A DNA stretch of 64,000 nucleotides, taken from positions 109,614-173,613 of the forward strand of contig JAUSEW010000027.1 in the NCBI GenBank assembly GCA_030651475.1. Direction: 5' to 3'. The translations under genes were made by a program, and so were the position numbers. Below, piece after piece: positions 3,197 to 20,640 of this stretch. This DNA comes from Candidatus Levyibacteriota bacterium (lineage in GTDB: Bacteria; Patescibacteriota; Microgenomatia; Levybacterales; UBA12049). Under the pieces are notes generated by a model. That model ran no database searches, was not told where the DNA came from, and saw only the letters and a program-made list of their open reading frames with translations. Numbering within the stretch: position 1 is the stretch's first letter; each line of letters begins with the position of its first letter.

Positions 3197-3220
3197 AAGA
3201 AATAAAAGCAACAATTCAAA

Positions 3221-3591: not shown

Positions 3592-3683
3592 TATTAATAT
3601 ACGCTATATTTTCTCTTAGGTTTTTATGTATAATTGCTATAGCTATAAAATAGTTAAGATAAGCATCCTGCTTATGTAATTTT

Positions 3684-4523
3684 ATGCAAAATATAATTCC
3701 AATAGGACAAAACAAGGTAATTAATGGATTAGAAGCTAAAAAACCATATTTCAAAAGTGATAATATTCTTATTTATAAAGACGATATTTTGAAAATTGCC
3801 TCTATTCCTGAAAATTCTGTAGATTTGATCGTAACTTCACCGCCTTATAATGTTAATATTCATTACAATTCCCATGTTGACAATTTGACTTATGAGGATT
3901 ATTTGGAATTTACCCAAAAATGGATTAAGAAATGTTTTGATTTAGCAAAAACTGAAGGACGGTTTTTGTTAAACATTCCGCTTGATAAAAATAAAGGCGG
4001 ACAAAAATCAGTTGGAGCAGACATTACACAAATCGCAAAAAATGTTGGCTGGAAATATCACTCAACAATTATTTGGAACGAAGGAAATATATCTCGTCGT
4101 ACTGCTTGGGGTTCATTTATGTCTGCTTCTGCTCCTTATGTTATTGCTCCGGTGGAATTGATTTTGGTTTTATACAAAGACAGCTGGAAGAAGACAGGTG
4201 CGAGTAGGAAAAATGACATTACAAAGCAGGAATTTATGGATTGGACAAACGGAATGTGGACATTTCCTGGCCAAAGTAGAAAAGGAGCAGGCGGTCATCC
4301 CGCACCATTTCCGATTGAATTACCAAGACGGTGTATAAAATTATTTAGCTTTGTCGGTGAAACGGTTTTGGATCCATTTCTAGGAAGCGGAACAACACTT
4401 ATCGCCTCATATCTACATAATAGAAAAGGAATAGGGATTGATATTGATAAAAATTATTGCGATTTGGCAATTAAGCGCTTACAAGTGGAAGCGAAAATAA
4501 ATCAATCAAGTTTGCTAAACTAA
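3684..4523 (+). CDS. DNA methyltransferase, beta-class N4-cytosine/N6-adenine type (SPPY motif IV ahead of the SAM-binding motif)
   Basis: LIVTSPPYNV is the catalytic motif. The SAM-binding region DPFLGSGTTLIAS lies near the C-terminus, which is the circularly permuted beta-class order. Confidence 0.85.
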   Translation: MQNIIPIGQNKVINGLEAKKPYFKSDNILIYKDDILKIASIPENSVDLIVTSPPYNVNIHYNSHVDNLTYEDYLEFTQKWIKKCFDLAKTEGRFLLNIPLDKNKGGQKSVGADITQIAKNVGWKYHSTIIWNEGNISRRTAWGSFMSASAPYVIAPVELILVLYKDSWKKTGASRKNDITKQEFMDWTNGMWTFPGQSRKGAGGHPAPFPIELPRRCIKLFSFVGETVLDPFLGSGTTLIASYLHNRKGIGIDIDKNYCDLAIKRLQVEAKINQSSLLN

Positions 4524-4528
4524 TAATT

Positions 4529-5125
4529 ATGAAGAAAGACAAAAACAACAATATAGTTCAGGAAGATCTTGTAATTGAGTTTTTTAAGAAAAACCCAAAT
4601 AGGGACATAAAACATCCCGAAGTGGTTGATTGGGTTGTATCAGCATATAGAGATAGAACGGGTAATGTGTTTCGTGATCCCGATAGGGCAATTCGTAAAT
4701 TGTCCCAAAGCGGATTTTTAATAAAAATAGCCAAAGGAATTTATAGATATGATCCCAAAAAGGCATATAAACGCGAACTTCAAGATTTTACTGTTGCTCA
4801 AAAACAGACAATTCTAGAAAGAGATGGTTACAAGTGCGTTATATGCGGAAGAGGTAAGAAAGATGGCGTTGATTTACACGTTGACCATATTAAGCCAAAA
4901 GATTTTGGCGGTGAAGCAACAATAGAAAACGGTCAAACTTTATGTTCGCAACATAATTTTATAAAAAAGAATTTGAAGCAAACAGAAACAGGCAAGAAGA
5001 TGTTTATTCGTCTTTATGAATTGGCAAAAAGTGAAAAGAACGAGGAATTAAAAAAGTTTTGCGCAGATGTTCTTGAAACCTACGAAAAACACAATATAAA
5101 TGGGCATATTATCTGGGAAAAATAA
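4529..5125 (+). CDS. HNH endonuclease (candidate restriction endonuclease partner of the methyltransferase)
   Basis: CVICGRGKKDGVDLHVDHIKPKDFGG....CSQHN is an HNH/zinc-finger nuclease motif. It starts 5 nt after the methyltransferase stop. Confidence 0.8.
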   Translation: MKKDKNNNIVQEDLVIEFFKKNPNRDIKHPEVVDWVVSAYRDRTGNVFRDPDRAIRKLSQSGFLIKIAKGIYRYDPKKAYKRELQDFTVAQKQTILERDGYKCVICGRGKKDGVDLHVDHIKPKDFGGEATIENGQTLCSQHNFIKKNLKQTETGKKMFIRLYELAKSEKNEELKKFCADVLETYEKHNINGHIIWEK

Positions 5126-5131
5126 TTACCT

Positions 5132-5518
5132 ATGAATCCTTCCAGAGAACATCAAGATTTAATTAAGGCCCTTAAAAACCATTTTATACAAAGATTGGGC
5201 TTTACTATATTAAGCGTTGATCTTCCTGAATCTTTAGATAAGCCTTTTCAAATTGGCAGACACAGTCCCGATATTATCGCTAAGGATCAATTTGGAATTA
5301 TACAAATTGGAGAGGCTAAGGTAGGAGACAACATATCTTCTCCTGAGTCTGAAGAACAATTTAAGGATTTCTCTAATCAAGTAATGAGGGGAACAAATGT
5401 TCCAGTTCCGTTGCATATAATAATTTTTCAAAAAGATTATAATACTTTATTAACAAAATTAACAACAGTTGGTCTAAGTCAAAAAATAGGTACGAAAATT
5501 GTAATATGGACAATATAG
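5132..5518 (+). CDS. Hypothetical small protein with a possible PD-(D/E)xK nuclease-like motif (SPD...GEAK)
   Basis: 128-aa ORF packed tightly between the HNH and PIN genes. HSPDIIAKDQFGIIQIGEAKVG fits a [S/P]D-x(n)-E-x-K pattern. The fold assignment is speculative. Confidence 0.45.
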   Translation: MNPSREHQDLIKALKNHFIQRLGFTILSVDLPESLDKPFQIGRHSPDIIAKDQFGIIQIGEAKVGDNISSPESEEQFKDFSNQVMRGTNVPVPLHIIIFQKDYNTLLTKLTTVGLSQKIGTKIVIWTI

Positions 5519-6126
5519 CTTCCGATCAAAAGGCTAAAATAGCTGAAACAAAAGAGGCAATAGAAGATAGGCCTGTTGTGAAGGAACCCCCTAGTGGTCC
5601 AAAAATACTCCTAGAGTCATCTTTTATTTTGGCAATACTGAATCAAGTGGATCCAAATAACAAAACTGCTAGTGCAATATTAGGTTTTCTTACGCCTTTT
5701 AACTGCAGATTTCATATTCCATTATTAGTTTCGGCTGAAGTTTTATCAAAAGTCGTACAAAGAGAAAAGGGCGTAGCGGCAGGAATAAAACTCTTTGAGT
5801 CTTTTATGAAAAGACTACCAGGGACACTTTTAACAGGAGCTACGCCCGATTTCGATGATATCGTCAGTCGATATAAAATGTTTGGCAGAAAAGACATAAA
5901 AAATTTACAAGGCAACGATTTCATAATAGTTACAGAAGGAATAATTTCTGGTTCTGTTATTTTAACTTGTGACCATGAAATGTATAAAAGAGTTAAGAAT
6001 TACCATGAAGACATATATTTTGTTGCCACAGACTCTGATAAATATGAGGATGATGCTGCTAAATTAATTAGTAGATTTCTCAAATTATCTGCTGCTCCAG
6101 TCGGTAGCAAACAGGGGGTTAAATAA
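5506..6126 (+). CDS. PIN-domain protein (VapC-like nuclease fold) with an N-terminal extension
   Basis: Four PIN-type acidic positions are recognisable: ILLESSFILA, LLVSAEVLSKV, PDFDDIVS and ILTCDHEMYK. It overlaps the upstream gene by 13 nt. Confidence 0.55.
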   Translation: MDNIASDQKAKIAETKEAIEDRPVVKEPPSGPKILLESSFILAILNQVDPNNKTASAILGFLTPFNCRFHIPLLVSAEVLSKVVQREKGVAAGIKLFESFMKRLPGTLLTGATPDFDDIVSRYKMFGRKDIKNLQGNDFIIVTEGIISGSVILTCDHEMYKRVKNYHEDIYFVATDSDKYEDDAAKLISRFLKLSAAPVGSKQGVK

Positions 6127-6151
6127 TAGATAGGGCGCATGCGTTACGTAT

Positions 6152-6178
6152 ACACCTCGAAGGTGTAAGGCTATTTTC
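6152..6178 (+). terminator. Possible intrinsic terminator (ACACCT-CGA-AGGTGT hairpin then TATTTTC)
   Basis: A 6-bp stem with a 3-nt loop sits 26 nt after the PIN gene stop. A U-rich tract follows after 5 nt. Weak. Confidence 0.3.
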
Positions 6179-6356
6179 AAGAGAAGAAATAGACAAAATA
6201 GGACGACTTTATTAGCAAGGAGTTTTTGCTGCTATTGAATTATTTATTTATGGCTTCTTTTCTGCTATTATAGATTTGTGGATAACCTGATGGAAAAGAT
6301 TGTTTCTCTTTGCAAACGCCGAGCCGCCAAAGGCGAGCCTCGCCTTATTATTCAAT

Positions 6357-7712
6357 ATGGATCAAAAAAATAATAAACAAAACTTAATGGATAAAATTAC
6401 AGCTTTATGTAAGAGGCGGGGTTTTATTTATCCCGGAAGTGAAATCTACGGAGGATTGCAAGGCACTTGGGATTACGGGCCCCTTGGTACGCTTCTGAAA
6501 AAGAATCTAAAAGATATTTGGTGGAAAGACGCAGTTGAGAAAAGAGACGACATGGTGGGAGTTGACGCCGCAATTATGATGCATCCAAAAGCTTGGGAAG
6601 CTTCAGGACATGTGGAAGCATTTACAGATCCTTTGGTTGAATGCAAGATATGCCACGAACGTTTTAGAGCTGATGAGAAAGAAAAAGTTCTTGAGCATAT
6701 CAAAACCCATGATGGGAAAAAAGTTGACTGGACTAATCCGCAAAAGTTTAATTTATTGGTAAAAGCATATTTAGGAGTAATTGAAGGTAAGCAGTCGGAA
6801 TTATATCTGCGGGGAGAAATTACAAACGGAGCACAAGTGAATTTCAGAAATGTTTTAGATTCTACCAGAATAAAAATTCCTTTTGGTATAGCGCAAATAG
6901 GTAAAGCCTTTAGAAATGAAATAACGCCGGGGAATTTTACTTTTAGAAGCAGGGAGTTTGAGCAAATGGAAACCCAATATTACATAAAGCCCGACAAAAA
7001 AGAAGGAGAAAAATGGTTTGAATACTGGAAAGATAACAGAATGAATTTCTATCTTTCTTTGGGAATAAAAAAAGAAAACTTAAGATTTAGAGAACATAGG
7101 GAAGAAGAAAAAGCGCATTATGCGATAGCAGCAACAGATATAGAATATAACGCTCCGTTTGGGTGGTCGGAATTTATGGGCATACATAATAGGGGTGACT
7201 GGGATTTGTCAAGACACCAGAAATATTCGGGACAGAAAATGACATATAAAGATGAAGTAGCTGGAGAAGAATATGTTCCATGGGACATAGAAACATCAGC
7301 AGGAGTTGACAGATCAATATTATTTTTGCTAATTGATTCGTATGAAGAGGATGATCCTTCGACAGGCTCAGGACAAGGGAAGAGAGTGGTTTTGAAGCTT
7401 AATCCCAAGCTTGCTCCGTATAAAGCTGCGGTTTTTCCTCTTCTTGCCAATAAAGAAGATCTTGTAAAAACCGCCAAAGATGTTTATTATAGTCTCAAGA
7501 AAGATATCAATGGAATGGTTGCTTTTGACGCCAGGGGAAATATCGGAAAACGCTATTATTCCCAAGATGAAATCGGTACGCCATATTGCATAACAGTTGA
7601 TTTTCAAACACTTGAAGACGAAACAGTTACGGTTAGGAATAGAGATACGATGAAACAGGAAAGAATAAAAATAGAAAAACTCGCAGAATTCTTAAATCCA
7701 AAAATAGATTAA
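6357..7712 (+). CDS. glyQS: Glycine--tRNA ligase (class II, alpha2 GlyQS type)
   Basis: ITALCKRRGFIYPGSEIYGGLQGTWDYGPLG and downstream class II motifs. The start is taken at the ATG at 6357 inside the longer ORF. Confidence 0.9.
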   Translation: MDQKNNKQNLMDKITALCKRRGFIYPGSEIYGGLQGTWDYGPLGTLLKKNLKDIWWKDAVEKRDDMVGVDAAIMMHPKAWEASGHVEAFTDPLVECKICHERFRADEKEKVLEHIKTHDGKKVDWTNPQKFNLLVKAYLGVIEGKQSELYLRGEITNGAQVNFRNVLDSTRIKIPFGIAQIGKAFRNEITPGNFTFRSREFEQMETQYYIKPDKKEGEKWFEYWKDNRMNFYLSLGIKKENLRFREHREEEKAHYAIAATDIEYNAPFGWSEFMGIHNRGDWDLSRHQKYSGQKMTYKDEVAGEEYVPWDIETSAGVDRSILFLLIDSYEEDDPSTGSGQGKRVVLKLNPKLAPYKAAVFPLLANKEDLVKTAKDVYYSLKKDINGMVAFDARGNIGKRYYSQDEIGTPYCITVDFQTLEDETVTVRNRDTMKQERIKIEKLAEFLNPKID

Positions 7713-7721
7713 GAGTTTATA

Positions 7722-8033
7722 ATGAATATGGAAACCGCAAGGCGTCGTATACAGTTGGTTGTTTCAATAAATGGGACCAAAAGGACTGAACTTACAGGGA
7801 AAGGTTTGATGGTACAGGAGCTAGTTAGGATAGATTACTCTTTAAGAAAGCATGAAAGGCCATCGGTATCTTTTAAAATGTCGGATGACATGGTTCGTGC
7901 ATATTCCGAGAGAAGGGATGAATTGTATAAGCTTCTTGGATTACCCGAGAATCAAATTACCAGAGCAAAAATAATAGATGGTTACAGCGGAAAACTTTGG
8001 GAAATCGGTCATCCCCATTGGCATTTCAAATAA
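7722..8033 (+). CDS. Hypothetical protein (103 aa)
   Basis: ORF only. No recognisable motif. Confidence 0.35.
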   Translation: MNMETARRRIQLVVSINGTKRTELTGKGLMVQELVRIDYSLRKHERPSVSFKMSDDMVRAYSERRDELYKLLGLPENQITRAKIIDGYSGKLWEIGHPHWHFK

Positions 8034-8091
8034 AAATTATAAATATTTCCTTATTGACAAAATTATTGAAATTAGTACAATTATTACATAA

Positions 8092-8562
8092 GTGAAGAAT
8101 AAGAAGCTTATTGTTGTTCTGGGAGTTTCAATAGTGTTGGTTTTGGCTGGGGGAGGATATTTCCTGCTTTCAGGCAAGAATACAGCTCCTGCGCCAACTA
8201 CGAGTGCTACGTCACAGGTTCAGGACGTTTCGGAACAAGCTATTCCTACTCTTACTCCTTCGGATCTTGGTCTTTCTCTTACGGCCAACAGCAATACTAC
8301 CAAAGTCACAATGGTCCTAACCAAGACAAGCGATGTATCCACGATTGACTACGAACTTTCTTATACTGCAAAAGGAGACATTCCAAGGGGAATTATAGGC
8401 CAGGTTATTGTTAAGCCAGGTAAGTCTGTCAGTCAGGAAATTACACTTGGAACTTGCTCTGACGTTTGTCATTACGATCAAGATGTTACAGGAATTAATC
8501 TTGTTTTGAAGATTACGAAAACTAACGGTAAAACATATCAAGTAGAAAAAAGCCTCGACTAA
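8092..8562 (+). CDS. Hypothetical secreted/membrane-anchored protein (GTG start, N-terminal hydrophobic helix, Ser/Thr-rich linker)
   Basis: KLIVVLGVSIVLVLAGGGYFLL is a hydrophobic anchor or signal. A low-complexity linker and a beta-rich domain follow. Confidence 0.45.
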   Translation: MKNKKLIVVLGVSIVLVLAGGGYFLLSGKNTAPAPTTSATSQVQDVSEQAIPTLTPSDLGLSLTANSNTTKVTMVLTKTSDVSTIDYELSYTAKGDIPRGIIGQVIVKPGKSVSQEITLGTCSDVCHYDQDVTGINLVLKITKTNGKTYQVEKSLD

Positions 8563-8649
8563 CTTCATTTTATCTTTTTACCCCAGGCAAGTTTATATGG
8601 GTAGAGCCTCAACCATTAGTCGACACTAACGCGAGCCTATTTTGCTCTC

Positions 8650-8716
8650 TTGACAAGTGGGAAAAAGGAGTTCAAAATGGATTAAAGTGGGAAAAAGTGG
8701 GACAAAGTGGGACACA
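8650..8716 (+). promoter_or_regulatory. mraZ promoter/operator: TTGACA -35-like hexamer plus four GTGGG direct repeats on a 10-bp period (MraZ-box array)
   Basis: TTGACA at 8650-8655. GTGGG at 8657, 8687, 8697 and 8707, the last three in perfect 10-bp register (GTGGGAAAAA GTGGGACAAA GTGGGACACA), immediately 5' of the mraZ ATG at 8736. Confidence 0.55.
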
Positions 8717-8735
8717 AGGAAGGCAGGCGGAAAAT

Positions 8736-9182
8736 ATGCTCATAGGACAATATGAAGGAAAACTTGGAGAAAAAAATAGACTCGCATTTCCAAAAAGGCT
8801 TAGGGAGCTTTTGGGGAATAAATTAATTATTACATTAGGTTATGAAAACTCGCTTATTATCGTCTCGGAAGAAGGCTGGCAGGCATTGCTTGAAGGAACA
8901 GAGGGTAAGCCTTTTATTCAAAGGAGCGCAAGAGAGACTCAGCGATTCTTGCTCGGAGGAGCCAGTTTCGTTGAACTTGACGGTAAAGGAAGGTTTATTA
9001 TACCTAACTATCTTAGAGAATTTGCAAAAATTGAAAGCGAGGTCGTATTCCTAGGTTTGTCCAGATACGTAGAGCTGTGGGGAAAAGAAAATTGGGGCGT
9101 ATACAAAAAGAACCTTGAAAAAAACATAGATAAAATTTCGGCAAAGCTTATTGAAAATAGCAAAAAAGGTGAAAATGGATAG
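8736..9182 (+). CDS. mraZ: Transcriptional regulator MraZ
   Basis: MLIGQYEGKLGEKNRLAFPKRLRELLG and a duplicated MraZ-type fold. It is the first gene of the dcw cluster. Confidence 0.9.
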   Translation: MLIGQYEGKLGEKNRLAFPKRLRELLGNKLIITLGYENSLIIVSEEGWQALLEGTEGKPFIQRSARETQRFLLGGASFVELDGKGRFIIPNYLREFAKIESEVVFLGLSRYVELWGKENWGVYKKNLEKNIDKISAKLIENSKKGENG

Positions 9183-10074
9183 CTTTCATACGAGCGTACT
9201 TTTAAAAGAAATTATAAGCGGTTTAAATGTTCAAAAAAACAAGAACTATATTGACGCAACAATTGGAGGGGGAGGACATAGCTTTGAGATTTTGAGATTG
9301 GGTGGAATTGTTTTGGGAATTGACTGTGATAAAGACGCGATAGATTATGTAGGGGAAAATTGGAAATTAGAAAGCAAAAGATGCGGGATCCCGGAGAAAA
9401 ATTTGATTTTGGTAAAAGGAAACTTTAGGGATTTGGATAAAATTGCACATTTAAATAATTTTGACAAAATTTCGGGAATAATTTTTGACTTGGGGGTAAG
9501 CAGCCACCAGTTGGGAGCTGCACAAAGAGGTTTTAGTTTTCAAAAAGAGGGCCCATTGGATATGCGGATGGACCAAGATCTAAATCTTACAGCTAAAGAT
9601 TTTATTTACGCATTAACGAAAGGAGAATTATATGAATTATTTACTAAGCTGGGTGAAGAAAGCAATGCTAGGGAGTTTTCTAACCTTATTGTTATGGCCC
9701 GTGGAGTAAAACCGATTGAAACGACAAGAGATTTGGCGATGATCTTTGAAAAAATTCCCTCAAGAAGAGTTTGGGGAATTAACAGAGCAACGAAAATATT
9801 TCAGGCGTTGCGTATAGCTGTAAACGATGAGCTAAACGCTATCAGAGAAGCATTGCCCAAAGCAGTAAATATGCTTGAGGACGAGGGAAGAATTTTGGTA
9901 ATTTCGTTTCATTCGCTGGAAGATAGAATTGTAAAAAGAGCTTTTCTAGAATTTGAAGAAAAAAATATGGGAAAAATAATTACAAAAAAACCTATAACTC
10001 CGACAAAAGAAGAATTAGGAATAAATAGAAGAAGCCGGAGTGCCAAACTTAGAATTTTCGAAAGGAATATATGA
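9175..10074 (+). CDS. rsmH: 16S rRNA (cytosine1402-N4)-methyltransferase RsmH (MraW)
   Basis: MDSFHTSVLLKEI...YIDATIGGGGHS and DLGVSSHQL are RsmH motifs. Confidence 0.9.
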   Translation: MDSFHTSVLLKEIISGLNVQKNKNYIDATIGGGGHSFEILRLGGIVLGIDCDKDAIDYVGENWKLESKRCGIPEKNLILVKGNFRDLDKIAHLNNFDKISGIIFDLGVSSHQLGAAQRGFSFQKEGPLDMRMDQDLNLTAKDFIYALTKGELYELFTKLGEESNAREFSNLIVMARGVKPIETTRDLAMIFEKIPSRRVWGINRATKIFQALRIAVNDELNAIREALPKAVNMLEDEGRILVISFHSLEDRIVKRAFLEFEEKNMGKIITKKPITPTKEELGINRRSRSAKLRIFERNI

Positions 10075-10355
10075 AAAGATTTAAATTACTTATAACATTT
10101 TTGGTTTTGGTAATAGTTTTCTTATCAATCGTTCAGGTTGTTGTATCCAACAGGCTGTCAACGACAGGTCCGCTTTTTAGCAAGATAGAAGAGGAAACGA
10201 ATTTCTATAAAAGAGAGAATTTACTTCTTTCGGAACGGCTTTTAACGTCGTCATCTCTTAATAATATAGCGTTAAAAGCAGAAGCTTTAGGCTTCATAGA
10301 AGGAAAAACCAAGTTTATCGTTACAGCATCATTGCCATTGGCTCTTAGACAATAA
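10071..10355 (+). CDS. ftsL: FtsL-like cell division protein (small single-TM protein)
   Basis: 94 aa with an N-terminal TM helix. The assignment is positional, between rsmH and ftsI. Confidence 0.45.
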   Translation: MKRFKLLITFLVLVIVFLSIVQVVVSNRLSTTGPLFSKIEEETNFYKRENLLLSERLLTSSSLNNIALKAEALGFIEGKTKFIVTASLPLALRQ

Positions 10356-12034
10356 TGACTTGGCGATACCGTTTTATTTTTGCAATTTTTCTTTTCTTCT
10401 TCGGTTTAATAATTATCAGGTTGTTTTACTGGCAAGTTGTCAAAGCTCAAGAATTATCTGTTCTTGCGGAATATCAGTACAGCGGTATAGTGAAAATGCT
10501 GCCTAATCGTGGAGAAATACAGACATCCGATGACTTTCCAATAGCTGCCAATAAAGTTTCCTATCTTGTGTTTGTAAATCCTAAAGCAATAAAGGATAAA
10601 AGGAATATTACAAACGAGATATCTCCAATAATTAACGTAGATAAAGCTTCCATAAGTGCGTTTCTATCTTTTGATAAAGTTTGGGTTTCTTTGAAATCGG
10701 GCATTGACGATAAAACAAAAAAAAGTATTGAGGCATTGAATTTTACCGGAATTGGATTTGAGCAGCAATCTTCCCGTTTTTATCCGGAAGCATCTTTAGC
10801 AGCTCACCTTCTTGGATTTGTTGGAAAAAACGAAGCAGGAGGAGATAAAGGATATTTTGGACTTGAAGGATATTATGACAGACTTTTAAGAGGTAAGGAA
10901 GGATATGCGGTTCAGATACAAGATGCTTTAGGAAGGCCGATTTTGTCCAGAATGTCAGGAAATTTAGTTAAGGTTGACGGAAGCAGCATCAAGCTTAGCA
11001 TAGATAGGTCAATACAGTTTCTGGCAGAGCAAAAATTAAAAGAAGGCATAGAGATGTATGGAGCAAGCGGGGGAATGGTAGGGATTATGGATCCAAAAAC
11101 AGGAGGAATGCTTGCCATGGCTTCTTTCCCATCGTTTACACCTCAAGATTATCAAAAGTATTCGGAGGATTTGTACAAAAACCCTTTTATTACAAATACC
11201 TATGAACCGGGATCTACTTTTAAGCCTATGGTTATGTCGGCAGCTTTAGAAGAGGGACTGGTTAAACCGGATACGAAGTGTCCAGCCTGCAATGGGCCGG
11301 TTTCGGTCGGAGGATATGATCTGCACACATGGAATGATAAGTATTATAAGGACACTAATATGATTGACGTAATAAAACACTCCGACAATACGGGAATGGT
11401 TTTCGTGGCGCAGAAACTTGGAGTAGATAAGATGATTGATTATCTTACGAAGTTTGGTATAGGAAGTCTGACAAATATTGACCTTCAGGGTGAGGTATCG
11501 CCGAGTCTTAAAGCAAGAAACGCTTGGTATGCGGTTGATCTTGCTACAACAGGGTTTGGGCAGGGTATATCGGTGACGCCTATAGGGCTTTTGGATGCTT
11601 TTTCAGCAATTGCCAACGGAGGTAAACGTGTGGAGCCTCACGTGGTATCTCAAGTTCAATCTCCTGATGGAAAAATATCTAAAATACTTCCAAAAACCGT
11701 AGATACCCCTATTTCGGGAAAAACTGCCAAAATTATGACGGAAATGTTAGTTAATGCAGTTAATAATGGGGAGGCTTCGTGGGCGCGTCTTAAGGGGTAT
11801 AGAATCGCCGGAAAAACAGGTACGGCTTCAATTCCTGTCAAAGGCCACTACGATCCTACGAAAACTATAACTTCATTTATTGGTTTCGCGCCGGCAAATG
11901 ATCCTAAATTTGTCATGTTGGTTATTTTGGATAAGCCGACAACATCCATTTACGGAGCGGAAACAGCAGCTCCGGTATTTTTCGATATCGCAAAAGACCT
12001 CTTACTCTATTACGGCGTTCCCCCCAGCGAATAG
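10355..12034 (+). CDS. ftsI: Peptidoglycan D,D-transpeptidase FtsI (class B penicillin-binding protein)
   Basis: N-terminal TM helix. SxxK is present as GSTFKP, SxN as HSDNTG and KTG as AGKTGTA. Confidence 0.85.
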   Translation: MTWRYRFIFAIFLFFFGLIIIRLFYWQVVKAQELSVLAEYQYSGIVKMLPNRGEIQTSDDFPIAANKVSYLVFVNPKAIKDKRNITNEISPIINVDKASISAFLSFDKVWVSLKSGIDDKTKKSIEALNFTGIGFEQQSSRFYPEASLAAHLLGFVGKNEAGGDKGYFGLEGYYDRLLRGKEGYAVQIQDALGRPILSRMSGNLVKVDGSSIKLSIDRSIQFLAEQKLKEGIEMYGASGGMVGIMDPKTGGMLAMASFPSFTPQDYQKYSEDLYKNPFITNTYEPGSTFKPMVMSAALEEGLVKPDTKCPACNGPVSVGGYDLHTWNDKYYKDTNMIDVIKHSDNTGMVFVAQKLGVDKMIDYLTKFGIGSLTNIDLQGEVSPSLKARNAWYAVDLATTGFGQGISVTPIGLLDAFSAIANGGKRVEPHVVSQVQSPDGKISKILPKTVDTPISGKTAKIMTEMLVNAVNNGEASWARLKGYRIAGKTGTASIPVKGHYDPTKTITSFIGFAPANDPKFVMLVILDKPTTSIYGAETAAPVFFDIAKDLLLYYGVPPSE

Positions 12035-12058
12035 TTTATGGTACAATAAGTTTATAAA

Positions 12059-12490
12059 ATGGCAGAAGCTCAAAGTCCTGATGGCCAAGCAAGTAGAGAA
12101 CCAGTAGAGAAATCTCTAGCGCATGTTTCGGATGCAGATATTATTGGAGAATTATCAAGAAGACTTCATGCCAATCCTCAATTAGATCCTACTGTCTTAA
12201 AAAGTTTCGATGAAGTTACGGCAAAAATAAAGGAAGGATTAAAACCAGGAGAGCCTAAAGCAGATTTAAAACCCACTACGGAGCCAGGCAACGTAGAGGC
12301 TCAAGCTACATCCGAGTCGGAAGGAAAAAAATGGGCAAAAATTATACGAGAAAAAGGCGCAGGTGGCCTGTTGCAGGGAAAGTTCAAAAACAGCTGGGGT
12401 TATTATGATGAAAGTGGTATTTTTCATGGCATTGAGCCAATCGGGCAGAGCAGTTCGGAAACAGCAATAGGCTACACAAGCGCCGGGTAG
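12059..12490 (+). CDS. Hypothetical low-complexity protein inserted in the dcw cluster
   Basis: ORF only. Acidic and Pro/Lys-rich, no TM helix. Confidence 0.35.
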   Translation: MAEAQSPDGQASREPVEKSLAHVSDADIIGELSRRLHANPQLDPTVLKSFDEVTAKIKEGLKPGEPKADLKPTTEPGNVEAQATSESEGKKWAKIIREKGAGGLLQGKFKNSWGYYDESGIFHGIEPIGQSSSETAIGYTSAG

Positions 12491-14301: not shown

Positions 14302-15709
14302 TTCAATTCATTTCGTCGGAATAAAAGGTGTCGGAATGACGCCTTTGGCAGTTATTGCAAAAGAGGCGGGTATGAAAGTTTCCGGTTCGGATATCGGAGA
14401 AACTTTTATTACGGATGAAATTTTAAAAAAGGCAAAAATTATTCCCCTTGTTGGTTTTTCTAAAAATCATATAGGAAATCCCGATCTCGTCATAACAACA
14501 GGCGCACATGGAGGATTCACTAACGTAGAGGTAATTGAAGCAAAGAAAAAAGAGATAAAAGTTATTACGCAGGGTGAAGCTGTAGGAATTTTCATGAAAG
14601 GTAAAATTTTCGGAAGAGAACAAATTGGCATTTCCGTGACAGGAACTCATGGTAAAACTACGACAACAGCTATAATTGCGACAATCCTTAAAGGATGCTA
14701 TCTTGATCCGTCATTCTTAATTGGTACCGGAAACGTCTTGTCGCTTGGTTCTTCCGGGCATTTCGGGCAAGGGAAATATTTCATTGCGGAAGCGGATGAG
14801 TATATGACAGAACCTGTTTTTGATAAAACCATAAAATTTTTATGGCAGTATCCCAAAATCGCAATTTTTACAAACATAGAATTTGATCATCCTGACGCAT
14901 ATAAATCTCTAGATGATGTAAAAAAGGCATTTCTTAAATTCGCCAATCAGTTATCAGAAGATGCAGTTTTAATTGCATGCCAAGATAACGAAAATGTTGC
15001 GGAAGTTTTGAAATCATATAGCGGCAGAAGAATTACTTATGGATTTTCCAAAGAAACTGATTTCGTAATTGAAAATGTTAAATCGAAAAATGGGAAATTA
15101 GAATTTGATTTAACAGGTAAAGGAAAAAGCTTAGGTAAATTTAAGCTTAATGTTTTTGGCAAGCATAACGCTCTAAATGCAACTGCTGCAATTATAGCAA
15201 GTCTCGAAGCAGGACTTCCAATAGGCGCAATAAAAAAAGCACTTTTGTTATTCGTTGGTACGAAAAGAAGATCGGAATATATTGGGAAACTTTCAACCGG
15301 AGCTATGGTTTTTGATGATTATGCCCATCACCCTACGGAAATTAGAAATACCTTATCCGCTTTCAGAAACTCGTTTCCACGCAATAAGATAGTTTGTATT
15401 TTCCAGCCGCATACTTATTCTAGAACAAAATCACTGTTCGAACAATTTATACACTCTTTTAACGATGCAGATATTGTCGTGTTAACCAATATCTATGCAT
15501 CGCTTAGAGAACAGCCTGATTCGACTGTTTCATCAGAGATGCTAGCAGAAAAGATGAGTAGATTTAAAAAAAATGTAATTTTTTTACCAAAACTTAGCGA
15601 TGTGGTAAAATATATATCTCAAAAGCAGTTTGGCAGAGATACTATAATTATCACAATGGGAGCGGGAGACGTGTATAGAATGAACGAAAGATTAAATATT
15701 AAAGATTGA
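14291..15709 (+). CDS. murC: UDP-N-acetylmuramate--L-alanine ligase MurC
   Basis: The N-terminus HFVGIKGVGMTPLAVIAKEAGMKVSGSD is MurC-type. P-loop VTGTHGKTTTT. Confidence 0.8.
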   Translation: MKINSIHFVGIKGVGMTPLAVIAKEAGMKVSGSDIGETFITDEILKKAKIIPLVGFSKNHIGNPDLVITTGAHGGFTNVEVIEAKKKEIKVITQGEAVGIFMKGKIFGREQIGISVTGTHGKTTTTAIIATILKGCYLDPSFLIGTGNVLSLGSSGHFGQGKYFIAEADEYMTEPVFDKTIKFLWQYPKIAIFTNIEFDHPDAYKSLDDVKKAFLKFANQLSEDAVLIACQDNENVAEVLKSYSGRRITYGFSKETDFVIENVKSKNGKLEFDLTGKGKSLGKFKLNVFGKHNALNATAAIIASLEAGLPIGAIKKALLLFVGTKRRSEYIGKLSTGAMVFDDYAHHPTEIRNTLSAFRNSFPRNKIVCIFQPHTYSRTKSLFEQFIHSFNDADIVVLTNIYASLREQPDSTVSSEMLAEKMSRFKKNVIFLPKLSDVVKYISQKQFGRDTIIITMGAGDVYRMNERLNIKD

Positions 15710-15717
15710 AGATTATT

Positions 15718-17058
15718 ATGGAAAAGCTAATTGTGAATGGAGGAAAAGCATTGAAGGGAAATGTTGTAGTGTCGGGAGCAAAAAACGTTGCCCTCAAGAC
15801 TCTTGTCGCAGCTTGTCTTACGGAGGAGGAGGTAGTGATAAGGAATATTCCGCTAGTCTCCGATTTCATGGTAATGCTTGATATCATAAGGGAACTTGGT
15901 GGAGAAGTTAAGATAAAAGATCATGAGGTAAGAATAAGGGTAAGAAAATTAAAAAAAAACAAAATCACTCTTGATGAAGCCGCGAAGATTAGGACTTCGG
16001 CTATGTTTATGGCACCTCTTCTTGCTAGAAACGGACAAGCTGTTATACCAAACCCTGGAGGATGCAGAATTGGAGCACGCCCAATCGACAGAACCATTAA
16101 AGGCATAGAGGCGCTTGGTGTAATAGCAAAATACAATACAAAAGACGGATATTTTTATCTAAAAATAGATAAAGATAAAGAAAAAAAATGGAAAAAAGTA
16201 ATTCATAAATTTGATAAGAGTACTCATACCGGTACGGAGACAATGATTCTGGCCTCGGTTCTTTTTAATGGAGAGGTAACTCTCCTTAACGCGGCAGAAG
16301 AGCCGGAGATAGATGAACTTATCAGCCTTTTGGTGCAAATGGGTGCAAAGATTGTAAGAAGCGGGAAAAGAGAAATAACCATAGATGGTGTTTCCAAACT
16401 TAATGGTACAACTTTCGTGGTGGGTCCTGACCGAAACGAAGTCGTAACATTCGCTATTGCGGGAATATTAACAAAAGGAGATGTTTTTATTGAAAATGCC
16501 CATAAGGTTGATTTGGGGATATTCATAGATAGAATGGAAGAAATAGGAGCAGGTGTGGAGATGAAAAAAAACGGTATAAGATTCTATTACAAAGGGTCTT
16601 TTAAAAATAGCGATATGGAAACATCTTTTTACCCGGGATTTATGACAGACTGGCAGGGTCCTTGGGCAGTTCTTATGACTCAAGCTGAAGGAAAATCTAC
16701 AATTCACGAAACAGTATATGAAAGCAGATTCGGTTATGTGAAGGAACTTAAAAAAATGGGCGCCCAAATATCTTTTTTTGATCCTGTCATTAAAAATCCT
16801 GAAGAAATTTATAATTTTAATCTTTCCGACAATAACCCCGATTATTTTCATGCAATAAAGATTATTGGCCCCACCAAGCTTCATAATGCTGTTGTTGAAA
16901 TATCGGATTTAAGAGCAGGCGCAACTCTTGTCTTGGCGGCTTTATTAGCAGATGGGGAAAGCGTTGTTTTCGGCGTAGAACATTTAGACAGAGGATACGA
17001 AAAGTTTGAAGAAAGACTTAGCGGTTTAGGAGCGAATATAAAAAGACTAAAGGAATAA
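15718..17058 (+). CDS. murA: UDP-N-acetylglucosamine 1-carboxyvinyltransferase MurA
   Basis: MEKLIVNGGKALKGNVVVSGAKNVALK is the MurA N-terminus. Full-length EPT fold with a small Lys-rich insertion. Confidence 0.9.
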   Translation: MEKLIVNGGKALKGNVVVSGAKNVALKTLVAACLTEEEVVIRNIPLVSDFMVMLDIIRELGGEVKIKDHEVRIRVRKLKKNKITLDEAAKIRTSAMFMAPLLARNGQAVIPNPGGCRIGARPIDRTIKGIEALGVIAKYNTKDGYFYLKIDKDKEKKWKKVIHKFDKSTHTGTETMILASVLFNGEVTLLNAAEEPEIDELISLLVQMGAKIVRSGKREITIDGVSKLNGTTFVVGPDRNEVVTFAIAGILTKGDVFIENAHKVDLGIFIDRMEEIGAGVEMKKNGIRFYYKGSFKNSDMETSFYPGFMTDWQGPWAVLMTQAEGKSTIHETVYESRFGYVKELKKMGAQISFFDPVIKNPEEIYNFNLSDNNPDYFHAIKIIGPTKLHNAVVEISDLRAGATLVLAALLADGESVVFGVEHLDRGYEKFEERLSGLGANIKRLKE

Positions 17059-17062: not shown

Positions 17063-18871
17063 ATGCAAGCAGTAATTTTGGCAGCAGGACAATCCAGCAG
17101 AATGTATCCGTTCGAAAACGAAATTCATAAATCCATGATTAGAATCATGGGAAAACCAATTCTTTATTACACAATAGAGGCACTTAAAAGATCAAAGATT
17201 TTTGATTTGATAATTGTTACAAGTGGAAAAAGTAAAACGGAGCAGTATTTTGGAGACGGAAAGAAATTGGGAGTATCGATTCAATACGTTTTTCAGGAAA
17301 AACCTGAAGGAGCAGGAGATGCTTTACTTCTTGCCGGTAAATATATAACCGGTGATTTTTTTCTTCTTAATGCATCTCACGTTGAAATTGATACGCTTAC
17401 GGAAGATTTGTTAAACGCGAAAGATAAAGATACCCAAGCAGTTCTTCTTGCAAGGAAAAAAACAACTGGCGTTATTCAGGGAGTTCTCAAATTTAAAGGC
17501 AGAAAAGTAGAGGAGATAGTTGAAAAACCAAAAATTGGAGAAGAGCCATCAAGTATGTGTGTTGTCGGCGTATATCTTTTCGAGAAAGAGTTTTTAAAAG
17601 CTCTTAATAATACGCCAAAAGAACATTATCAGCTTGAAAAGGCAATTTCCTCTTACGCCAAAAATAATTCCGTTGTGTTTTTGAAAACGTCAAAGGAAAC
17701 GGTTACGTTGAGATATCCATGGGATCTTTTGGGGATAAAAAATTACCTGTTTAAAAGCCTAAGAAGATCCATAAGCGTAAAATCAAAGATTGCAAAAACA
17801 GCAGAAATTATCGGAGAAGTTATGATTCAGGATAACGTAATTATAATGGAAGGAGTCCGCATAAAGGGACCGTGTTTTATCGGAAAAGGTACGGTAGTTG
17901 GAAATAATGCTTTGTTACGGAATGGAGTTAATATTGGAGAAAATTGTTTGGTAGGCAGTTTTATGGAAGTAAAAAACACTATTATTATGGATGAGTCAAC
18001 AACTCATTCGGGTTTTATTGGCGACTCGGTTATCGGTGAGAAGTGTAAGATAGCAGCGCAGTTTTGTACAGGAAACGTGAGGCTTGATAGAGGCATAATA
18101 AAAACTGTTGTTAAGGGAGAAAGCATAGAGACAGGAGTTAAGTTCCTTGGAGTATTTGTTGGAGCGGGATCAAATATCGGAATTAAAGTTTCCGCAATGC
18201 CCGGAATTATCATTGGAAGAAATGCAACCATTGGTCCTTCAACCGTAGTAATGAAGAATGTCCCAAGCGATACTAAATATTATACAAAATTTCAGGAAAT
18301 TATAAGCAAGAAAAATGTCCTTCAGCAAGTCTTCGACTCCGAGGTCTTCGACCGTGAGGCTCAGACCGAATCGGCTCAGACTCGAGGAGCTCAGGATTTT
18401 CAGAAATCAATAGTTCTTTTCGATATTGACTACACGCTTTTCGATACTCGCAAATTTAAGGATTCACAGCTTCAAGATTATAATATTTATGAAGAAGTTA
18501 TGGGGATATTAATGCAGCTTTCGGGTTTAGTCAATTTAGGAATTTTTTCTAAAGGAGAAACTGATTTTCAAAAAACCAAACTGGAAAAAACAGGAATGAT
18601 GCAGTTTTTTAAAGAAAATAATGTTCATATCTTTAACGACAAAGACGCCAATTTGATAAATGTTTTAGAAAAATACAAAGATTCTAAGCTGTTTCTTGTT
18701 GATGATAAATTGGGCATATTGTATTCTGCCAAAAAACATATGCCACAAGTTTTTACCATTTGGGTCAAAAGAGGTCCATTTGCCAAAGCTCAAAAGCCAA
18801 TTGAAGGATTTTCGCCCGATGAGCAAGTTGAAAATCTCTCAGAAATTGTTAGAATAGTAAGGTCAAATTAG
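17063..18871 (+). CDS. GlmU-like sugar-1-phosphate nucleotidyltransferase with a left-handed beta-helix, fused to a C-terminal HAD-superfamily hydrolase/phosphomutase-like domain
   Basis: N-terminus MQAVILAAGQSSRMYP is a nucleotidyltransferase motif. Hexapeptide repeats sit in the middle (IGEKCKIAAQF..VGAGSNIG). The C-terminal HAD motifs are DIDYTLFD (DxDxT) and LVDDK. Confidence 0.7.
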   Translation: MQAVILAAGQSSRMYPFENEIHKSMIRIMGKPILYYTIEALKRSKIFDLIIVTSGKSKTEQYFGDGKKLGVSIQYVFQEKPEGAGDALLLAGKYITGDFFLLNASHVEIDTLTEDLLNAKDKDTQAVLLARKKTTGVIQGVLKFKGRKVEEIVEKPKIGEEPSSMCVVGVYLFEKEFLKALNNTPKEHYQLEKAISSYAKNNSVVFLKTSKETVTLRYPWDLLGIKNYLFKSLRRSISVKSKIAKTAEIIGEVMIQDNVIIMEGVRIKGPCFIGKGTVVGNNALLRNGVNIGENCLVGSFMEVKNTIIMDESTTHSGFIGDSVIGEKCKIAAQFCTGNVRLDRGIIKTVVKGESIETGVKFLGVFVGAGSNIGIKVSAMPGIIIGRNATIGPSTVVMKNVPSDTKYYTKFQEIISKKNVLQQVFDSEVFDREAQTESAQTRGAQDFQKSIVLFDIDYTLFDTRKFKDSQLQDYNIYEEVMGILMQLSGLVNLGIFSKGETDFQKTKLEKTGMMQFFKENNVHIFNDKDANLINVLEKYKDSKLFLVDDKLGILYSAKKHMPQVFTIWVKRGPFAKAQKPIEGFSPDEQVENLSEIVRIVRSN

Positions 18872-18876: not shown

Positions 18877-20640
18877 ATGTGTGGAATATTTGGATACGTT
18901 GGGAATAAAAATGACGCTGCAGATATTGTCCTTGAGGGATTAAAGCTGTTGGAATACAGAGGTTATGACTCATGGGGAGTGGCGGTAAAAGTTCGGAAAA
19001 AGCTTTCGGTAGATAAGCATATAGGCAAAATAGGAGATGCGCAAGTAAACCTTCCTCAAAGCGTTTTGGGAATTGGACACACAAGGTGGGCAACTCATGG
19101 CGGAGTAACTGCTGCTAATGCCCATCCCCATATGGATTGCACGAAAACAATAGCAGTTGTCCATAATGGAATTGTTGAAAATTTTCAGGAATTAAAAACA
19201 GAACTTATTGAAAAAGGTCATAAATTTATTTCGGAAACAGATACAGAAATTATCCCTCATTTGATAGAAGAAAATCTGAAAAAAGAAGGTTTTGCTTCGT
19301 CTGTCAGAGATGCCTTCAATAGCCTTAAGGGTCTAAATGCAGTAGTTGTAGCGTATGCTCCATCTAGAGAAATAGTTGCGGCAAAAACAGGATCGCCTTT
19401 GGTTGTAGGTATTGGCAAAAATGAATTATTTGTTGCATCGGATGCATCAGCAATAGTTAAACATACAAAAAAAGTTATTTTTCTTGAAGATAATCAAATG
19501 GTTATTTTGGGAAAAAGATTAAAGCTAATAAATCTACCTGGAGGTAAAGAAATAAAACCAACAATAAATAAAATTAACTGGAAATTTGAGCATGGAGAAA
19601 AAGGGAAATTTAAACACTTTTTACTTAAAGAAATTAATGATCAGCGCACCACAATTATAGACGCTGTTACGCAGAACGAAAAAAAATTGTTCGAGTTTGC
19701 AAACCTTATTAGGAATTCGTTTGATACCTATATCTCTGGTTGTGGGACAGCGGGGCATGCTTGTAGAATGGCAACGTATATATTCTCAACTATTGCAAAA
19801 AAACATATAAATTTCGCTATTGGATCAGAATTTTCATATTATGAAGATTTTTTAACAGATAAGTCATTATTAATTGTCGCATCGCAAAGCGGAGAGACAA
19901 TAGATCTGGTAGAGGCAGTAAGCGCTGCAAGACGGCACAAAAGTAAAGTAACGGCATTGGTAAATGTGATTGGTTCAACGTTATATAGGCAATGTGATCT
20001 TGTACTTCCCTTGCGAGCCGGAGTTGAGAGATGTGTATTGTCTACAAAATCCTTTACCAGTAAGCTTGCAATTTTCTATCTTTTGGCGTTCATATTAAAA
20101 GGTGAATATAGCGAGGGTAGAAAAAAAATAATAAAAACAGCACGAGCCGTAGGAGAGCTTTTGGATGACAAAGAATTTAATCAGCAATTAAAGAATGTTG
20201 CAGATGAAATCTATAAAACAAAAGATATATATATTCTTGGTCGTGGTTTTAGCTTTCCTTTGGCATTGGAAGCTGCGCATAAAATTAAAGAAGCAAGTTA
20301 TATACATGCGGAAGGATTTGCTGGGGGTGAGCCAAAACATTGCGAAATCTCTCTTGTTTCAGAAGGTACTCCAACAATTGTTTTTGTACCAAATGATGAA
20401 ACTAAATCAGCAATAATTAGCAATGCAACAGAATTTAAGGCACGAGGTGCATATATTATTGGCATTGGGCCTGAGAAGCAAGCGGTTTTCGACGAATGGA
20501 TTCAAGTTCCCGATCTGGGAGTGACATCATCTATTATTAATATAATTCCCGCTCAACTATTAGCTTACTATTTAGCTTTAAAGAAGGGTAACGATCCAGA
20601 CAAGCCAAGGAATTTAGCCAAAAGTGTTACTGTGAAATAA
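18877..20640 (+). CDS. glmS: Glutamine--fructose-6-phosphate aminotransferase GlmS
   Basis: MCGIFGYVG gives the N-terminal nucleophile Cys. Two SIS domains follow. Confidence 0.9.
   Translation: MCGIFGYVGNKNDAADIVLEGLKLLEYRGYDSWGVAVKVRKKLSVDKHIGKIGDAQVNLPQSVLGIGHTRWATHGGVTAANAHPHMDCTKTIAVVHNGIVENFQELKTELIEKGHKFISETDTEIIPHLIEENLKKEGFASSVRDAFNSLKGLNAVVVAYAPSREIVAAKTGSPLVVGIGKNELFVASDASAIVKHTKKVIFLEDNQMVILGKRLKLINLPGGKEIKPTINKINWKFEHGEKGKFKHFLLKEINDQRTTIIDAVTQNEKKLFEFANLIRNSFDTYISGCGTAGHACRMATYIFSTIAKKHINFAIGSEFSYYEDFLTDKSLLIVASQSGETIDLVEAVSAARRHKSKVTALVNVIGSTLYRQCDLVLPLRAGVERCVLSTKSFTSKLAIFYLLAFILKGEYSEGRKKIIKTARAVGELLDDKEFNQQLKNVADEIYKTKDIYILGRGFSFPLALEAAHKIKEASYIHAEGFAGGEPKHCEISLVSEGTPTIVFVPNDETKSAIISNATEFKARGAYIIGIGPEKQAVFDEWIQVPDLGVTSSIINIIPAQLLAYYLALKKGNDPDKPRNLAKSVTVK

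Follow-up and report, generated by a model that had tools for sequence, protein, structure and literature searches.

The present analysis concerns a single Candidatus Levybacteria gene whose product consists of three modules, an archaeal-type GlmU, a flexible linker and a catalytically complete, cap-less domain of the HAD superfamily. Among Levybacteria the gene for this HAD always has UDP-GlcNAc genes as its neighbours, to which it is fused or translationally coupled. The domain is probably an active enzyme functionally coupled to UDP-GlcNAc synthesis, and a more specific reading, which we hold only tentatively, is that it carries out the phosphoryl transfer from GlcN-6-P to GlcN-1-P in a mutase-like manner, usually the job of GlmM. 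The gene lies on the forward strand of the window, by which we mean the whole 64-kb stretch of DNA that was analysed, and its open reading frame runs from an ATG through 602 codons to a stop (Table 1). The protein is 100% identical to MDO8621245.1 in NCBI, from a Candidatus Levybacteria MAG with a contig of 252,992 bp. Neither GlmU-HAD fusions nor glmM in Patescibacteria were found in the full-text literature searched.

Table 1. Positions in the window of the fused gene, its domains and motifs, and the two flanking genes
Feature	Position	Strand	Basis
murA (uses UDP-GlcNAc)	15706..17058	+	Pfam EPSP_synthase 1.6e-77; ends 4 nt upstream of fused gene
Fused gene, archaeal-type GlmU + linker + HAD domain	17063..18871	+	ORF list and translation
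Sugar-1-phosphate nucleotidyltransferase domain, aa 1-230	17063..17752	+	Pfam NTP_transferase, ST0452 alignment
Left-handed beta-helix acetyltransferase domain, aa 231-407	17753..18283	+	Hexapep/LbH, Arch_glmU, ST0452 alignment
Disordered linker, aa 408-446 (~39 aa)	18284..18400	+	AF2 pLDDT ~30; DNA comparison with L001, L007, L008
Cap-less (C0) HAD-fold phosphotransferase domain, aa 447-602	18401..18868	+	AF2, Foldseek, 2p11 match
HAD motif I DIDYT, aa 454-458 (D454 nucleophile, D456 general acid/base, T458)	18422..18436	+	Invariant in 30/30 orthologues
HAD motif II GIFSKG (S496)	18539..18556	+	G493, S496, G498 invariant
HAD motif III lysine K527, within NDKD aa 525-528	18641..18643	+	Invariant
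HAD motif IV D547-D548 (Mg2+ ligands), within LVDDK aa 545-549	18701..18706	+	Invariant
glmS (makes GlcN-6-P)	18877..20640	+	Pfam GATase and 2 SIS; starts 5 nt downstream of fused gene

The original prediction had described the first 400 or so residues as GlmU-like, and a nucleotidyltransferase and a beta-helix were indeed recovered over aa 1-407, but they are of the archaeal ST0452 type and not of the bacterial GlmU type. With the NCBIfam model TIGR03992 (Arch_glmU), whose cutoff is 292.1 bits, the protein scored 297.9, aa 1-396 corresponding to model positions 1-393, and Pfam matched NTP_transferase at aa 3-202 together with Hexapep and LbH. ST0452 from Sulfolobus tokodaii (PDB 2ggo, 5z09) aligned end to end with aa 1-400 (E 1.6e-44), sharing its nucleotidyltransferase loop and beta-helix as well as the acetyltransferase-site His and Asn. 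Both activities are predicted from the residues retained. The glycine-rich loop AAGQSSR occupies aa 7-13 and is accompanied by K23, and across 30 orthologues A8, G9, S11, R13, P16 and K23 of the nucleotidyltransferase and H315, N338, R340 and D342 of the acetyltransferase were invariant; H315 and N338 pair in the alignment with H308 and N331 of ST0452, which we take to be the catalytic residues of its acetyltransferase site. There are differences as well, in that Y311 of ST0452 is F318 here, that ST0452 stops after the beta-helix where the fused protein adds a 39-aa linker and the HAD domain, and that the host of the fused protein is, unlike that of ST0452, a bacterium with a dcw cluster.

The C-terminal part had been predicted to span some 180 residues carrying HAD motifs I and IV; the motifs are present, but the domain is shorter, about 156 aa, lacks a cap and is carried on a disordered linker. 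Conservation was scored in 30 orthologues with 42-87% identity, and motifs I-IV were invariant in all of them, so that on careful alignment D454, the catalytic nucleophile, and the three other motifs all stand. The basic residues K466, K506, K569 and R570 were likewise invariant, and among 84 related loci motifs I-IV were present in almost all, with DIDYT or a close variant in nearly all. The AF2 model of the domain was confident (pLDDT 92.7, pTM 0.88), and the top 50 PDB matches from Foldseek were almost all HAD-fold with probability 1.00, the best being 2p11 (E 4.5e-10), which phmmer also matched at E 4e-7. Assignment to the HAD superfamily is therefore far beyond chance, and phosphoryl-transfer activity, dependent on Mg2+ and proceeding by way of an aspartyl-phosphate, is predicted. 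What makes the domain unusual is the absence of a C1 cap together with scores below Pfam thresholds. The spacing from motif I to motif II is 42 residues, compared with 103-110 in capped orthologues and 2p11, and the alignment shows a clean 65-residue deletion where the C1 cap would sit; the cap is missing also in roughly 70% of the HAD orthologues, while about a quarter have a normal one. Pfam HAD_2 gave 12.6 bits against a gathering threshold of 23.8, and PF00702 was matched at E<0.01 in just 7 of 19 orthologous HAD domains, a shortfall of the models that does not touch what defines the fold.

The best match of the domain in both sequence and fold, 2p11, is BXE_B1342 of Burkholderia xenovorans, a protein of unknown function. 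It shares the VDDKL.IL and S.G...FQ..K motifs and a C-terminal segment after strand 5, and a family profile that included capped orthologues matched its residues 13-220 over the full length at E 8.4e-15, but identity is just ~22% and 2p11 has the C1 cap that the domain in the window is without. The next-best profile and fold matches, NANP/HDHD4, YfnB/YjjG and phosphoglycolate phosphatase, were weak (E ~1e-5) and covered the core only; these enzymes all have caps and show no linkage to GlmU. A kinship to beta-phosphoglucomutase, at which the original prediction had hinted, was not borne out, since the nearest solved structure is the uncharacterised 2p11, followed by sugar-phosphate phosphatases, and no beta-PGM model matched among NCBIfam families at E<=10.

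Most Levybacteria carry the HAD as a separate gene overlapping the upstream stop codon by 4-8 nt, and the fusion occurs in at least five separate clades with unrelated linkers, the fused architecture being found in 65 of the best 120 homologues. The fusion is real, and the window carries one of several independent fusions. That it is instead an assembly or frameshift artefact joining overlapping genes, as might be suspected from the 85%-identical relative L001, in which there are two genes with an 8-nt overlap, or that the HAD is a decaying remnant, can be practically dismissed, given that what joins the two parts is no single-base shift but an insert that keeps the frame, is locally repetitive, has 46% GC and is missing from that relative, that the same junction peptide NVLR.AQD.QKP is common to the independent assemblies L007 and L008, that fused orthologues recur across clades, and that every catalytic HAD residue is invariant. 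The gene is split in many relatives, but in none of them is the HAD part unlinked. The full-length AF2 model (pTM 0.67) has a disordered linker and an undefined interface between the HAD and the beta-helix, and therefore supports no conclusion on channelling.

Gene order around the HAD was strongly conserved. The fused gene had been reported as adjacent to glmS, as it is, with a gap of 5 nt, and among the 84 related loci murA was upstream of the HAD in 77 and glmS no more than 350 nt downstream in 58. In all 84 the HAD gene directly followed UDP-GlcNAc genes, including those in which a GNAT stands in place of the beta-helix, and GlmU homologues picked irrespective of the HAD also had the HAD gene next. 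Most often the genes run murA, uridylyltransferase, acetyltransferase, HAD and glmS. The upstream partners themselves vary, being Arch_glmU, a bacterial-type uridylyltransferase with GNAT, a uridylyltransferase with a stand-alone beta-helix, or a uridylyltransferase alone. The GNAT partner gave weak, non-top PDB matches (E ~0.02) to GNA1, the GlcN-6-P acetyltransferase. This conserved context strengthens, in our judgement, the earlier suggestion that the domain may supply or regulate a phosphosugar step.

The absence of glmM from the cluster, also part of the original prediction, was confirmed: the phosphoserine-loop motif [ST]-A-S-H-N-P did not occur in any of the six frames of the window, and tblastn with E. 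coli GlmM gave a best E of 2.6 there. E. coli GlmM likewise found no alpha-D-phosphohexomutase in the 84 related loci, which comprise 1.34 Mb of largely syntenic flanks, although this is weak evidence for absence from the whole genome, the chance expectation being about 1.5 hits even for a gene located elsewhere. Pfam identified no sugar kinase or mutase among the 40 ORFs of the window, and no anomeric sugar kinase recurred in the clusters of related loci. In loci without an adjacent glmS, clustering of the genes 3' of the HAD returned only mraY, ftsW, murG, ftsQ/ftsA, a CofD/YvcK-like gene, a hydrolase and a Mur ligase. On the Pfam survey and the downstream-gene clustering, the idea of a kinase or mutase hidden in the cluster was rejected. 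With neither a phosphoserine loop nor a GlmM match, the HAD is not a GlmM and is at most an analogue; the likeness to GlmM consists only of the proposed role and the slot between glmU and glmS, and the fold is unrelated.

Under the mutase reading, the GlmS product GlcN-6-P would be converted at the HAD step to GlcN-1-P, the substrate of GlmU. D454 would carry the aspartyl-phosphate, D456 would act as acid/base and Mg2+ would be held on D547/D548, with the phosphoenzyme and GlcN-6-P giving free enzyme and GlcN-1,6-bisphosphate, and then phosphoenzyme and GlcN-1-P. GlmU, whether tethered or co-translated, would then acetylate and uridylylate the latter, and MurA would use the product. Several patterns are consistent with this. 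The domain appears catalytically competent, with its invariant motifs and confident fold model; its linkage by short overlap or repeated fusion persists, and it is kept while partner enzymes are swapped; the order murA, nucleotidyltransferase, acetyltransferase, HAD and glmS is the exact reverse of the pathway if the HAD is the GlmM step; and that step is the sole enzymatic one without a gene in the cluster, to which the mutase and kinase searches above may be added. HAD-fold hexose phosphomutases provide a precedent in beta-PGM and in eukaryotic PMM/HAD5 (PMC8808168). These belong to the same superfamily, and their DxD motif, with an acid/base at Asp+2, performs the chemistry the proposed step needs (HAD5 being the Plasmodium enzyme). 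In capped orthologues of the window's HAD the cap is of the C1 class, as it is in beta-PGM, but beta-PGM acts on beta-anomers and no specific sequence kinship to the cap-less domain was detected.

The missing cap is also a difficulty for a mutase. To our knowledge all HAD mutases need a cap enclosing the bisphosphate intermediate, and the characterised cap-less HADs that we know of are phosphatases, whereas the domain in the window and most of its orthologues are cap-less. In profile searches the closest enzymes of characterised function were phosphatases such as NANP, and the operons of the 2p11 family, which adjoin hexose-phosphate and PPP genes and not GlmU, and so link it to hexose-phosphate metabolism and not to hexosamine, contain a canonical PGM_PMM mutase gene as well. 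Hydrolysis is what the majority of HAD enzymes carry out, and nearly all bacteria that make peptidoglycan have GlmM. The wider proposition, that Levybacteria have lost the canonical GlmM and that a small, often cap-less HAD fused or coupled to GlmU makes the 1-phosphate from GlcN-6-P (or GlcNAc-6-P), is one we regard as possible but on the unlikely side.

An alternative explanation could be that the HAD is a plain phosphatase on a hexosamine phosphate (GlcN-6-P, GlcNAc-6-P or GlcN-1,6-bisphosphate), serving either as a valve for the GlmS product (overflow or homeostasis) or as half of a phosphatase and kinase bypass of the mutase, as happens with MupP/AmgK or GmhB/HddA in the making of other nucleotide sugars. 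We consider this possible but on the unlikely side. Hydrolysis is the default HAD chemistry, and the nearest characterised relatives include, besides phosphoglycolate phosphatases and YfnB, NANP, which dephosphorylates a sugar phosphate in a nucleotide-sugar pathway, just ahead of a nucleotidyltransferase step. The embedding of the 2p11 family in hexose-6-phosphate/PPP operons would fit as well, as would the absence of a GlcN-6-P-sensing glmS ribozyme, Rfam over the window giving a single tRNA only. MupP, a HAD 6-phosphatase feeding a uridylyltransferase, is a precedent (PMC5371407); both GmhB and MupP are encoded with and feed an NTP-transferase, as the HAD in the window may, and GmhB is essentially cap-less and among the fold matches (3l8e). 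However, neither shows close sequence kinship, and both need a partner anomeric kinase, which was seen neither in the window nor recurrently in the clusters. It would moreover be futile to hydrolyse an intermediate of its own pathway while coupled stoichiometrically or fused to GlmU, an arrangement conserved in every architecture.

It is improbable that the HAD is an inorganic pyrophosphatase clearing the PPi of the uridylyltransferase and so pulling UDP-GlcNAc formation forward. HAD-type pyrophosphatases are known, among them BT2127 and, in an operon shared with an enzyme that releases PPi, PpaX of B. subtilis; in the remotest relatives (L067, L075, L081) the HAD comes right after a uridylyltransferase-only gene; and the invariant K466, K506, K569 and R570 could bind a second phosphate. 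Against this, in the common architectures an acetyltransferase sits between the nucleotidyltransferase and the HAD, where glmU is split (L006) it is the beta-helix half that keeps the HAD, the cell needs a general PPase anyway, and NCBIfam, Foldseek and profile comparisons gave no specific similarity to known HAD pyrophosphatases. A still weaker candidate, put forward by analogy with Ser/Thr phosphorylation control of GlmU, GlmS and GlmR in Gram-positive bacteria, is a cap-less protein phosphatase or other regulator of one of these; cap-less HADs often take macromolecular substrates and five loci have a CofD/YvcK (GlmR-like) gene after the HAD, but the normal cap in about a quarter of orthologues is of the small-molecule kind, no kinase is linked and the HAD is kept where GNAT replaces the beta-helix, so that this role is very improbable.

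Peptidoglycan cannot be made without UDP-GlcNAc synthesis by GlmS, GlmM and GlmU, a pathway that is regarded as invariant in bacteria. In Levybacteria, an order-level lineage of Patescibacteria, the pathway has been reshuffled, GlmU being archaeal-type or replaced by a uridylyltransferase and GNAT, and through this reshuffling one unannotated HAD enzyme, from a divergent cap-less family largely missed by current Pfam models, keeps the slot of the mutase step. If it is a phosphatase or a pyrophosphatase, it would still add a new, conserved accessory to the synthesis of cell-wall precursors. If it is a mutase, it would be a new solution to an essential step and would put right those entries that read "missing" or "hypothetical" in the metabolic reconstructions made for these uncultured bacteria. 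If GlmM has in addition been lost, this would be a non-orthologous replacement of a cell-wall enzyme that is essential and near-universal, the HAD would be the first hexosamine phosphomutase with this fold, and the fused polypeptide would carry three consecutive steps of UDP-GlcNAc synthesis.

The analysis establishes an intact HAD active site that is tethered, or translationally coupled, to hexosamine-1-phosphate enzymes. The open reading frame proposed for the fused gene is real, and its product has the same sequence as MDO8621245.1 at NCBI, a protein encoded on a 252,992 bp contig of a metagenome-assembled genome of Candidatus Levybacteria (Patescibacteria/CPR) and annotated solely as 'sugar phosphate nucleotidyltransferase'. 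The gene sits on the + strand of a bacterial division/cell-wall (dcw) cluster ordered mraZ, rsmH, small ORF, ftsI, two Mur ligases, murA, fused gene, glmS, mraY, ftsW, murG, ftsA, ftsZ, and the proposed adjacency to glmS was borne out. The interval between glmS and mraY holds other genes in relatives, e.g. an NAGPA-domain gene in contigs that encode protein P0197.

Coordinates of features in the window and in related loci from other genomes (L-numbers)
Sequence	Feature	Positions	Strand	Remarks
Window	N6/N4 DNA methylase gene, then HNH endonuclease gene	3684-5125	+	Upstream of dcw cluster; likely a restriction-modification or mobile pair
Window	ORF, 143 aa	12059-12490	+	In dcw cluster, between ftsI and first Mur ligase; no match in Pfam
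Window	ORF, 153 aa	12602-13063	+	As preceding ORF
Window	murA	15706-17058	+	4 nt gap to fused gene
Window	Fused gene	17063-18871	+	ATG start; 602 aa
Window	Linker-coding segment	18284-18400		46% GC (whole gene 36%); short direct repeats GTCTTCGAC (twice) and GGCTCAGAC (twice)
Window	glmS	18877-20640	+	5 nt gap from fused gene
Window	ORF, 1057 aa	20627-23800	-	B12-binding, radical SAM and Fe-ADH_2 (iron alcohol dehydrogenase-like) domains; inserted between glmS and mraY
Window	Low-GC region	44000-64000		28-33% GC (rest of window ~37%); many glycosyltransferases, PMT_2/YfhO/PTPS-related membrane proteins, a C-methyltransferase; probably a surface-glycan island
L006	glmU split by PhoU_div + PHO4 phosphate-transporter pair	1352-5164
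L009	Uridylyltransferase, GNAT replacing beta-helix, then HAD and glmS	8810-10471		Also e.g. L017, L022, L029
L090	gnd-zwf-HAD-tal-pgi-DUF2090-PGM-tkt	3583-12071		Polaromonas sp. C04

The original prediction called the N-terminal part GlmU-like, and its nucleotidyltransferase (Pfam NTP_transferase, aa 3-202) and hexapeptide repeats were recovered, although the type is archaeal: aa 1-396 scored 297.9 bits against NCBIfam TIGR03992 Arch_glmU, just over the 292.1 cutoff, whereas the bacterial GlmU models of NCBIfam scored far under their own cutoffs. This part aligns end to end with Sulfolobus tokodaii ST0452 (PDB 5z09/2ggo; E 1.6e-44), and the glycine-rich loop, R13 and K23, together with beta-helix residues H315, N338, R340 and D342, are invariant in 30 orthologues. 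Because of this score, alignment and residue conservation, the region is predicted to act as an archaeal-type bifunctional sugar-1-phosphate nucleotidyltransferase/acetyltransferase.

The C-terminal part is unambiguously a HAD-fold domain, as had been claimed. A phmmer search matched it to 2p11, the PDB structure of an uncharacterised HAD hydrolase (E 4e-7), and the family profile matched 2p11 over its full length (E 8.4e-15), with N-acylneuraminate-9-phosphatase next at ~2e-5. The AlphaFold2 model of aa 440-602 had a pLDDT of 92.7, and nearly all of its best 50 Foldseek matches were HAD-fold proteins, each at probability 1.00. Loss of the catalytic Asp nucleophile had been named as a finding that would count against the claim; D454 is retained, since none of the four motifs (D454-x-D456-x-T458, S496, K527 and D547-D548) varies across 30 orthologues with 42-87% identity; K466, Q503, K506 and R570 are likewise invariant. 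Curated models barely detect the domain: Pfam HAD_2 gave 12.6 bits (below its cutoff of 23.8), NCBIfam gave partial matches alone (YjjG/CTE7, ~1e-5), and PF00702 was found at E<0.01 in 7 of 19 orthologous domains. Stand-alone forms are named 'hypothetical protein' or, generically, 'FMN phosphatase YigB (HAD superfamily)' in databases. One representative protein, P0356 (296 aa), has the HAD domain's C-terminal half alone, behind what resembles an intein/homing-endonuclease remnant and a ribonucleotide-reductase-like 'GCGEQPLL' motif; it may be a chimeric gene call or a misassembly.

Motifs I and II are 42 residues apart in the window's domain, which leaves no cap, as against 103-110 residues in about a quarter of orthologues and in 2p11, where a C1 cap is present. 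In alignment A3 the difference comes down to the loss of 65 residues, which cleanly removes the helical C1 cap right behind the conserved 'FK.S' flap. The domain has every structural and catalytic hallmark of the superfamily, yet it is without the cap that its nearest relatives have and lies under curated thresholds.

A HAD-profile scan of species-representative genomes gave 79 loci, titled mostly Levybacteria or generic Patescibacteria, with about two dozen 'uncultured Gammaproteobacteria' that we took as placeholder titles; 84 were classified, including seven from other sources. In every one the HAD gene directly follows a UDP-GlcNAc-pathway gene, and the partner varies. It is Arch_glmU in architecture A (32 loci split, 9 fused); a bacterial-type GlmU uridylyltransferase domain (244 aa; 210 bits to GlmU models) with a GNAT acetyltransferase (145 aa) in B (~17 loci, e.g. 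L009); the same uridylyltransferase with a stand-alone beta-helix protein in C (~12); both this uridylyltransferase and Arch_glmU in D (5); and the uridylyltransferase alone in E (3). The GNAT of architecture B resembles GNA1, the GlcN-6-P acetyltransferase of eukaryotes, only weakly (E about 0.02). Bacterial-type domain and full Arch_glmU occur together in L047, L077-L079 and L084, and protein P0096 (671 aa) has two nucleotidyltransferase domains because the two are fused in one protein. In L006 the nucleotidyltransferase and beta-helix are separate genes, and the HAD, here capped, stays with the beta-helix half (4-nt overlap), a CofD/YvcK (GlmR-like) gene coming next. Upstream is murA in 77 of 84 loci, and glmS lies within 350 nt downstream in 58, CofD/YvcK-like or mraY, ftsW, murG coming next elsewhere. 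The HAD also follows two GlmU homologues chosen blind to it. Since partners vary while the HAD remains, it is the constant element of a module with otherwise interchangeable parts.

The usual order is murA, nucleotidyltransferase, acetyltransferase, HAD, glmS, and the pathway runs GlmS, mutase, acetyltransferase, uridylyltransferase, MurA, so that gene order is the reverse of pathway order if the HAD takes the mutase step, the sole step without a gene in the cluster. The predicted absence of glmM was upheld: no frame of the 64-kb window contains a phosphoserine-loop motif, and E. coli GlmM gave a best tblastn E of 2.6 against it. No GlmM homologue was found in the 84 loci (1.34 Mb), a weak negative with ~1.5 chance hits expected for genomes of ~0.8-1 Mb and flanks largely syntenic. 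The window has no glmS ribozyme, and Pfam found no sugar kinase among its ORFs.

The HAD domain is not a GlmM and is not recognisable as a beta-PGM. We tentatively propose that it is a GlmM analogue, in which D454~P would pass phosphoryl on a hexosamine phosphate and the resulting GlcN-1-P would be supplied to the adjacent acetyltransferase. Conserved gene context and the absence of a mutase gene from the cluster favour this, and HAD-fold hexose mutases exist, beta-PGM among them. PMM/HAD5 is another (PMC8808168). Against a mutase, the nearest characterised relatives by family profile are phosphatases, and the 2p11 family lies in operons for hexose-phosphate metabolism alongside a gene for a canonical PGM_PMM mutase, as in Polaromonas (Paraburkholderia has gnd-HAD). 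The cap is also missing; those cap-less HADs that have been characterised are, to our knowledge, hydrolases, and the HAD mutases known so far require a cap. An alternative explanation, possible if somewhat doubtful, is a hexosamine-phosphate phosphatase that serves either as an overflow valve or as one of the two partners in a phosphatase/kinase bypass such as MupP/AmgK/MurU (PMC5371407). It is improbable that the domain is a pyrophosphatase that draws the uridylyltransferase reaction forward, and very unlikely that it is a protein phosphatase or other regulator.

That the fusion is an artefact is scarcely credible, as the window shares with L007 and L008, from independent assemblies, a short in-frame insert at the junction that gives the linker ...NVLR.AQD.QKP.... 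At this place the window is about 60 nt longer, with local repeats, and the direct repeats suggest that the linker may have grown by local duplication; linkers of other fused clades are unrelated. In the full-length model (pLDDT 87.5, pTM 0.67) both modules are well folded, a disordered stretch (aa 408-446, pLDDT about 30) connects them, and no defined HAD/beta-helix interface is seen. A gene split in relatives with the HAD unlinked was the other finding named as counting against the claim; the gene is split in many, but the HAD is never unlinked. In L001 (85% identical), glmU (419 aa) and the HAD gene (160 aa) overlap by 8 nt with stop and start within ATGAATAA, and in other split relatives the overlap is 4 nt. 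When 80 HAD domains were placed in a rough neighbour-joining tree, the fused forms were spread over no fewer than five distinct clades. They account for 65 of the best 120 homologues, but for just 8 of the 79 genomes that represent species. The fusion is genuine, has arisen repeatedly and is easy in evolutionary terms.

In L090 the 2p11-family HAD lies in a pentose-phosphate operon at a position often taken by the 6-phosphogluconolactonase gene, which may offer a lead to the function of 2p11, a structural-genomics protein. The literature searched contained no description of a glmU-HAD fusion or a conserved glmU-HAD-glmS module. Both modules come from known superfamilies, the N-terminal one belonging to Arch_glmU; the folds are ordinary, and the gene context is what is notable.
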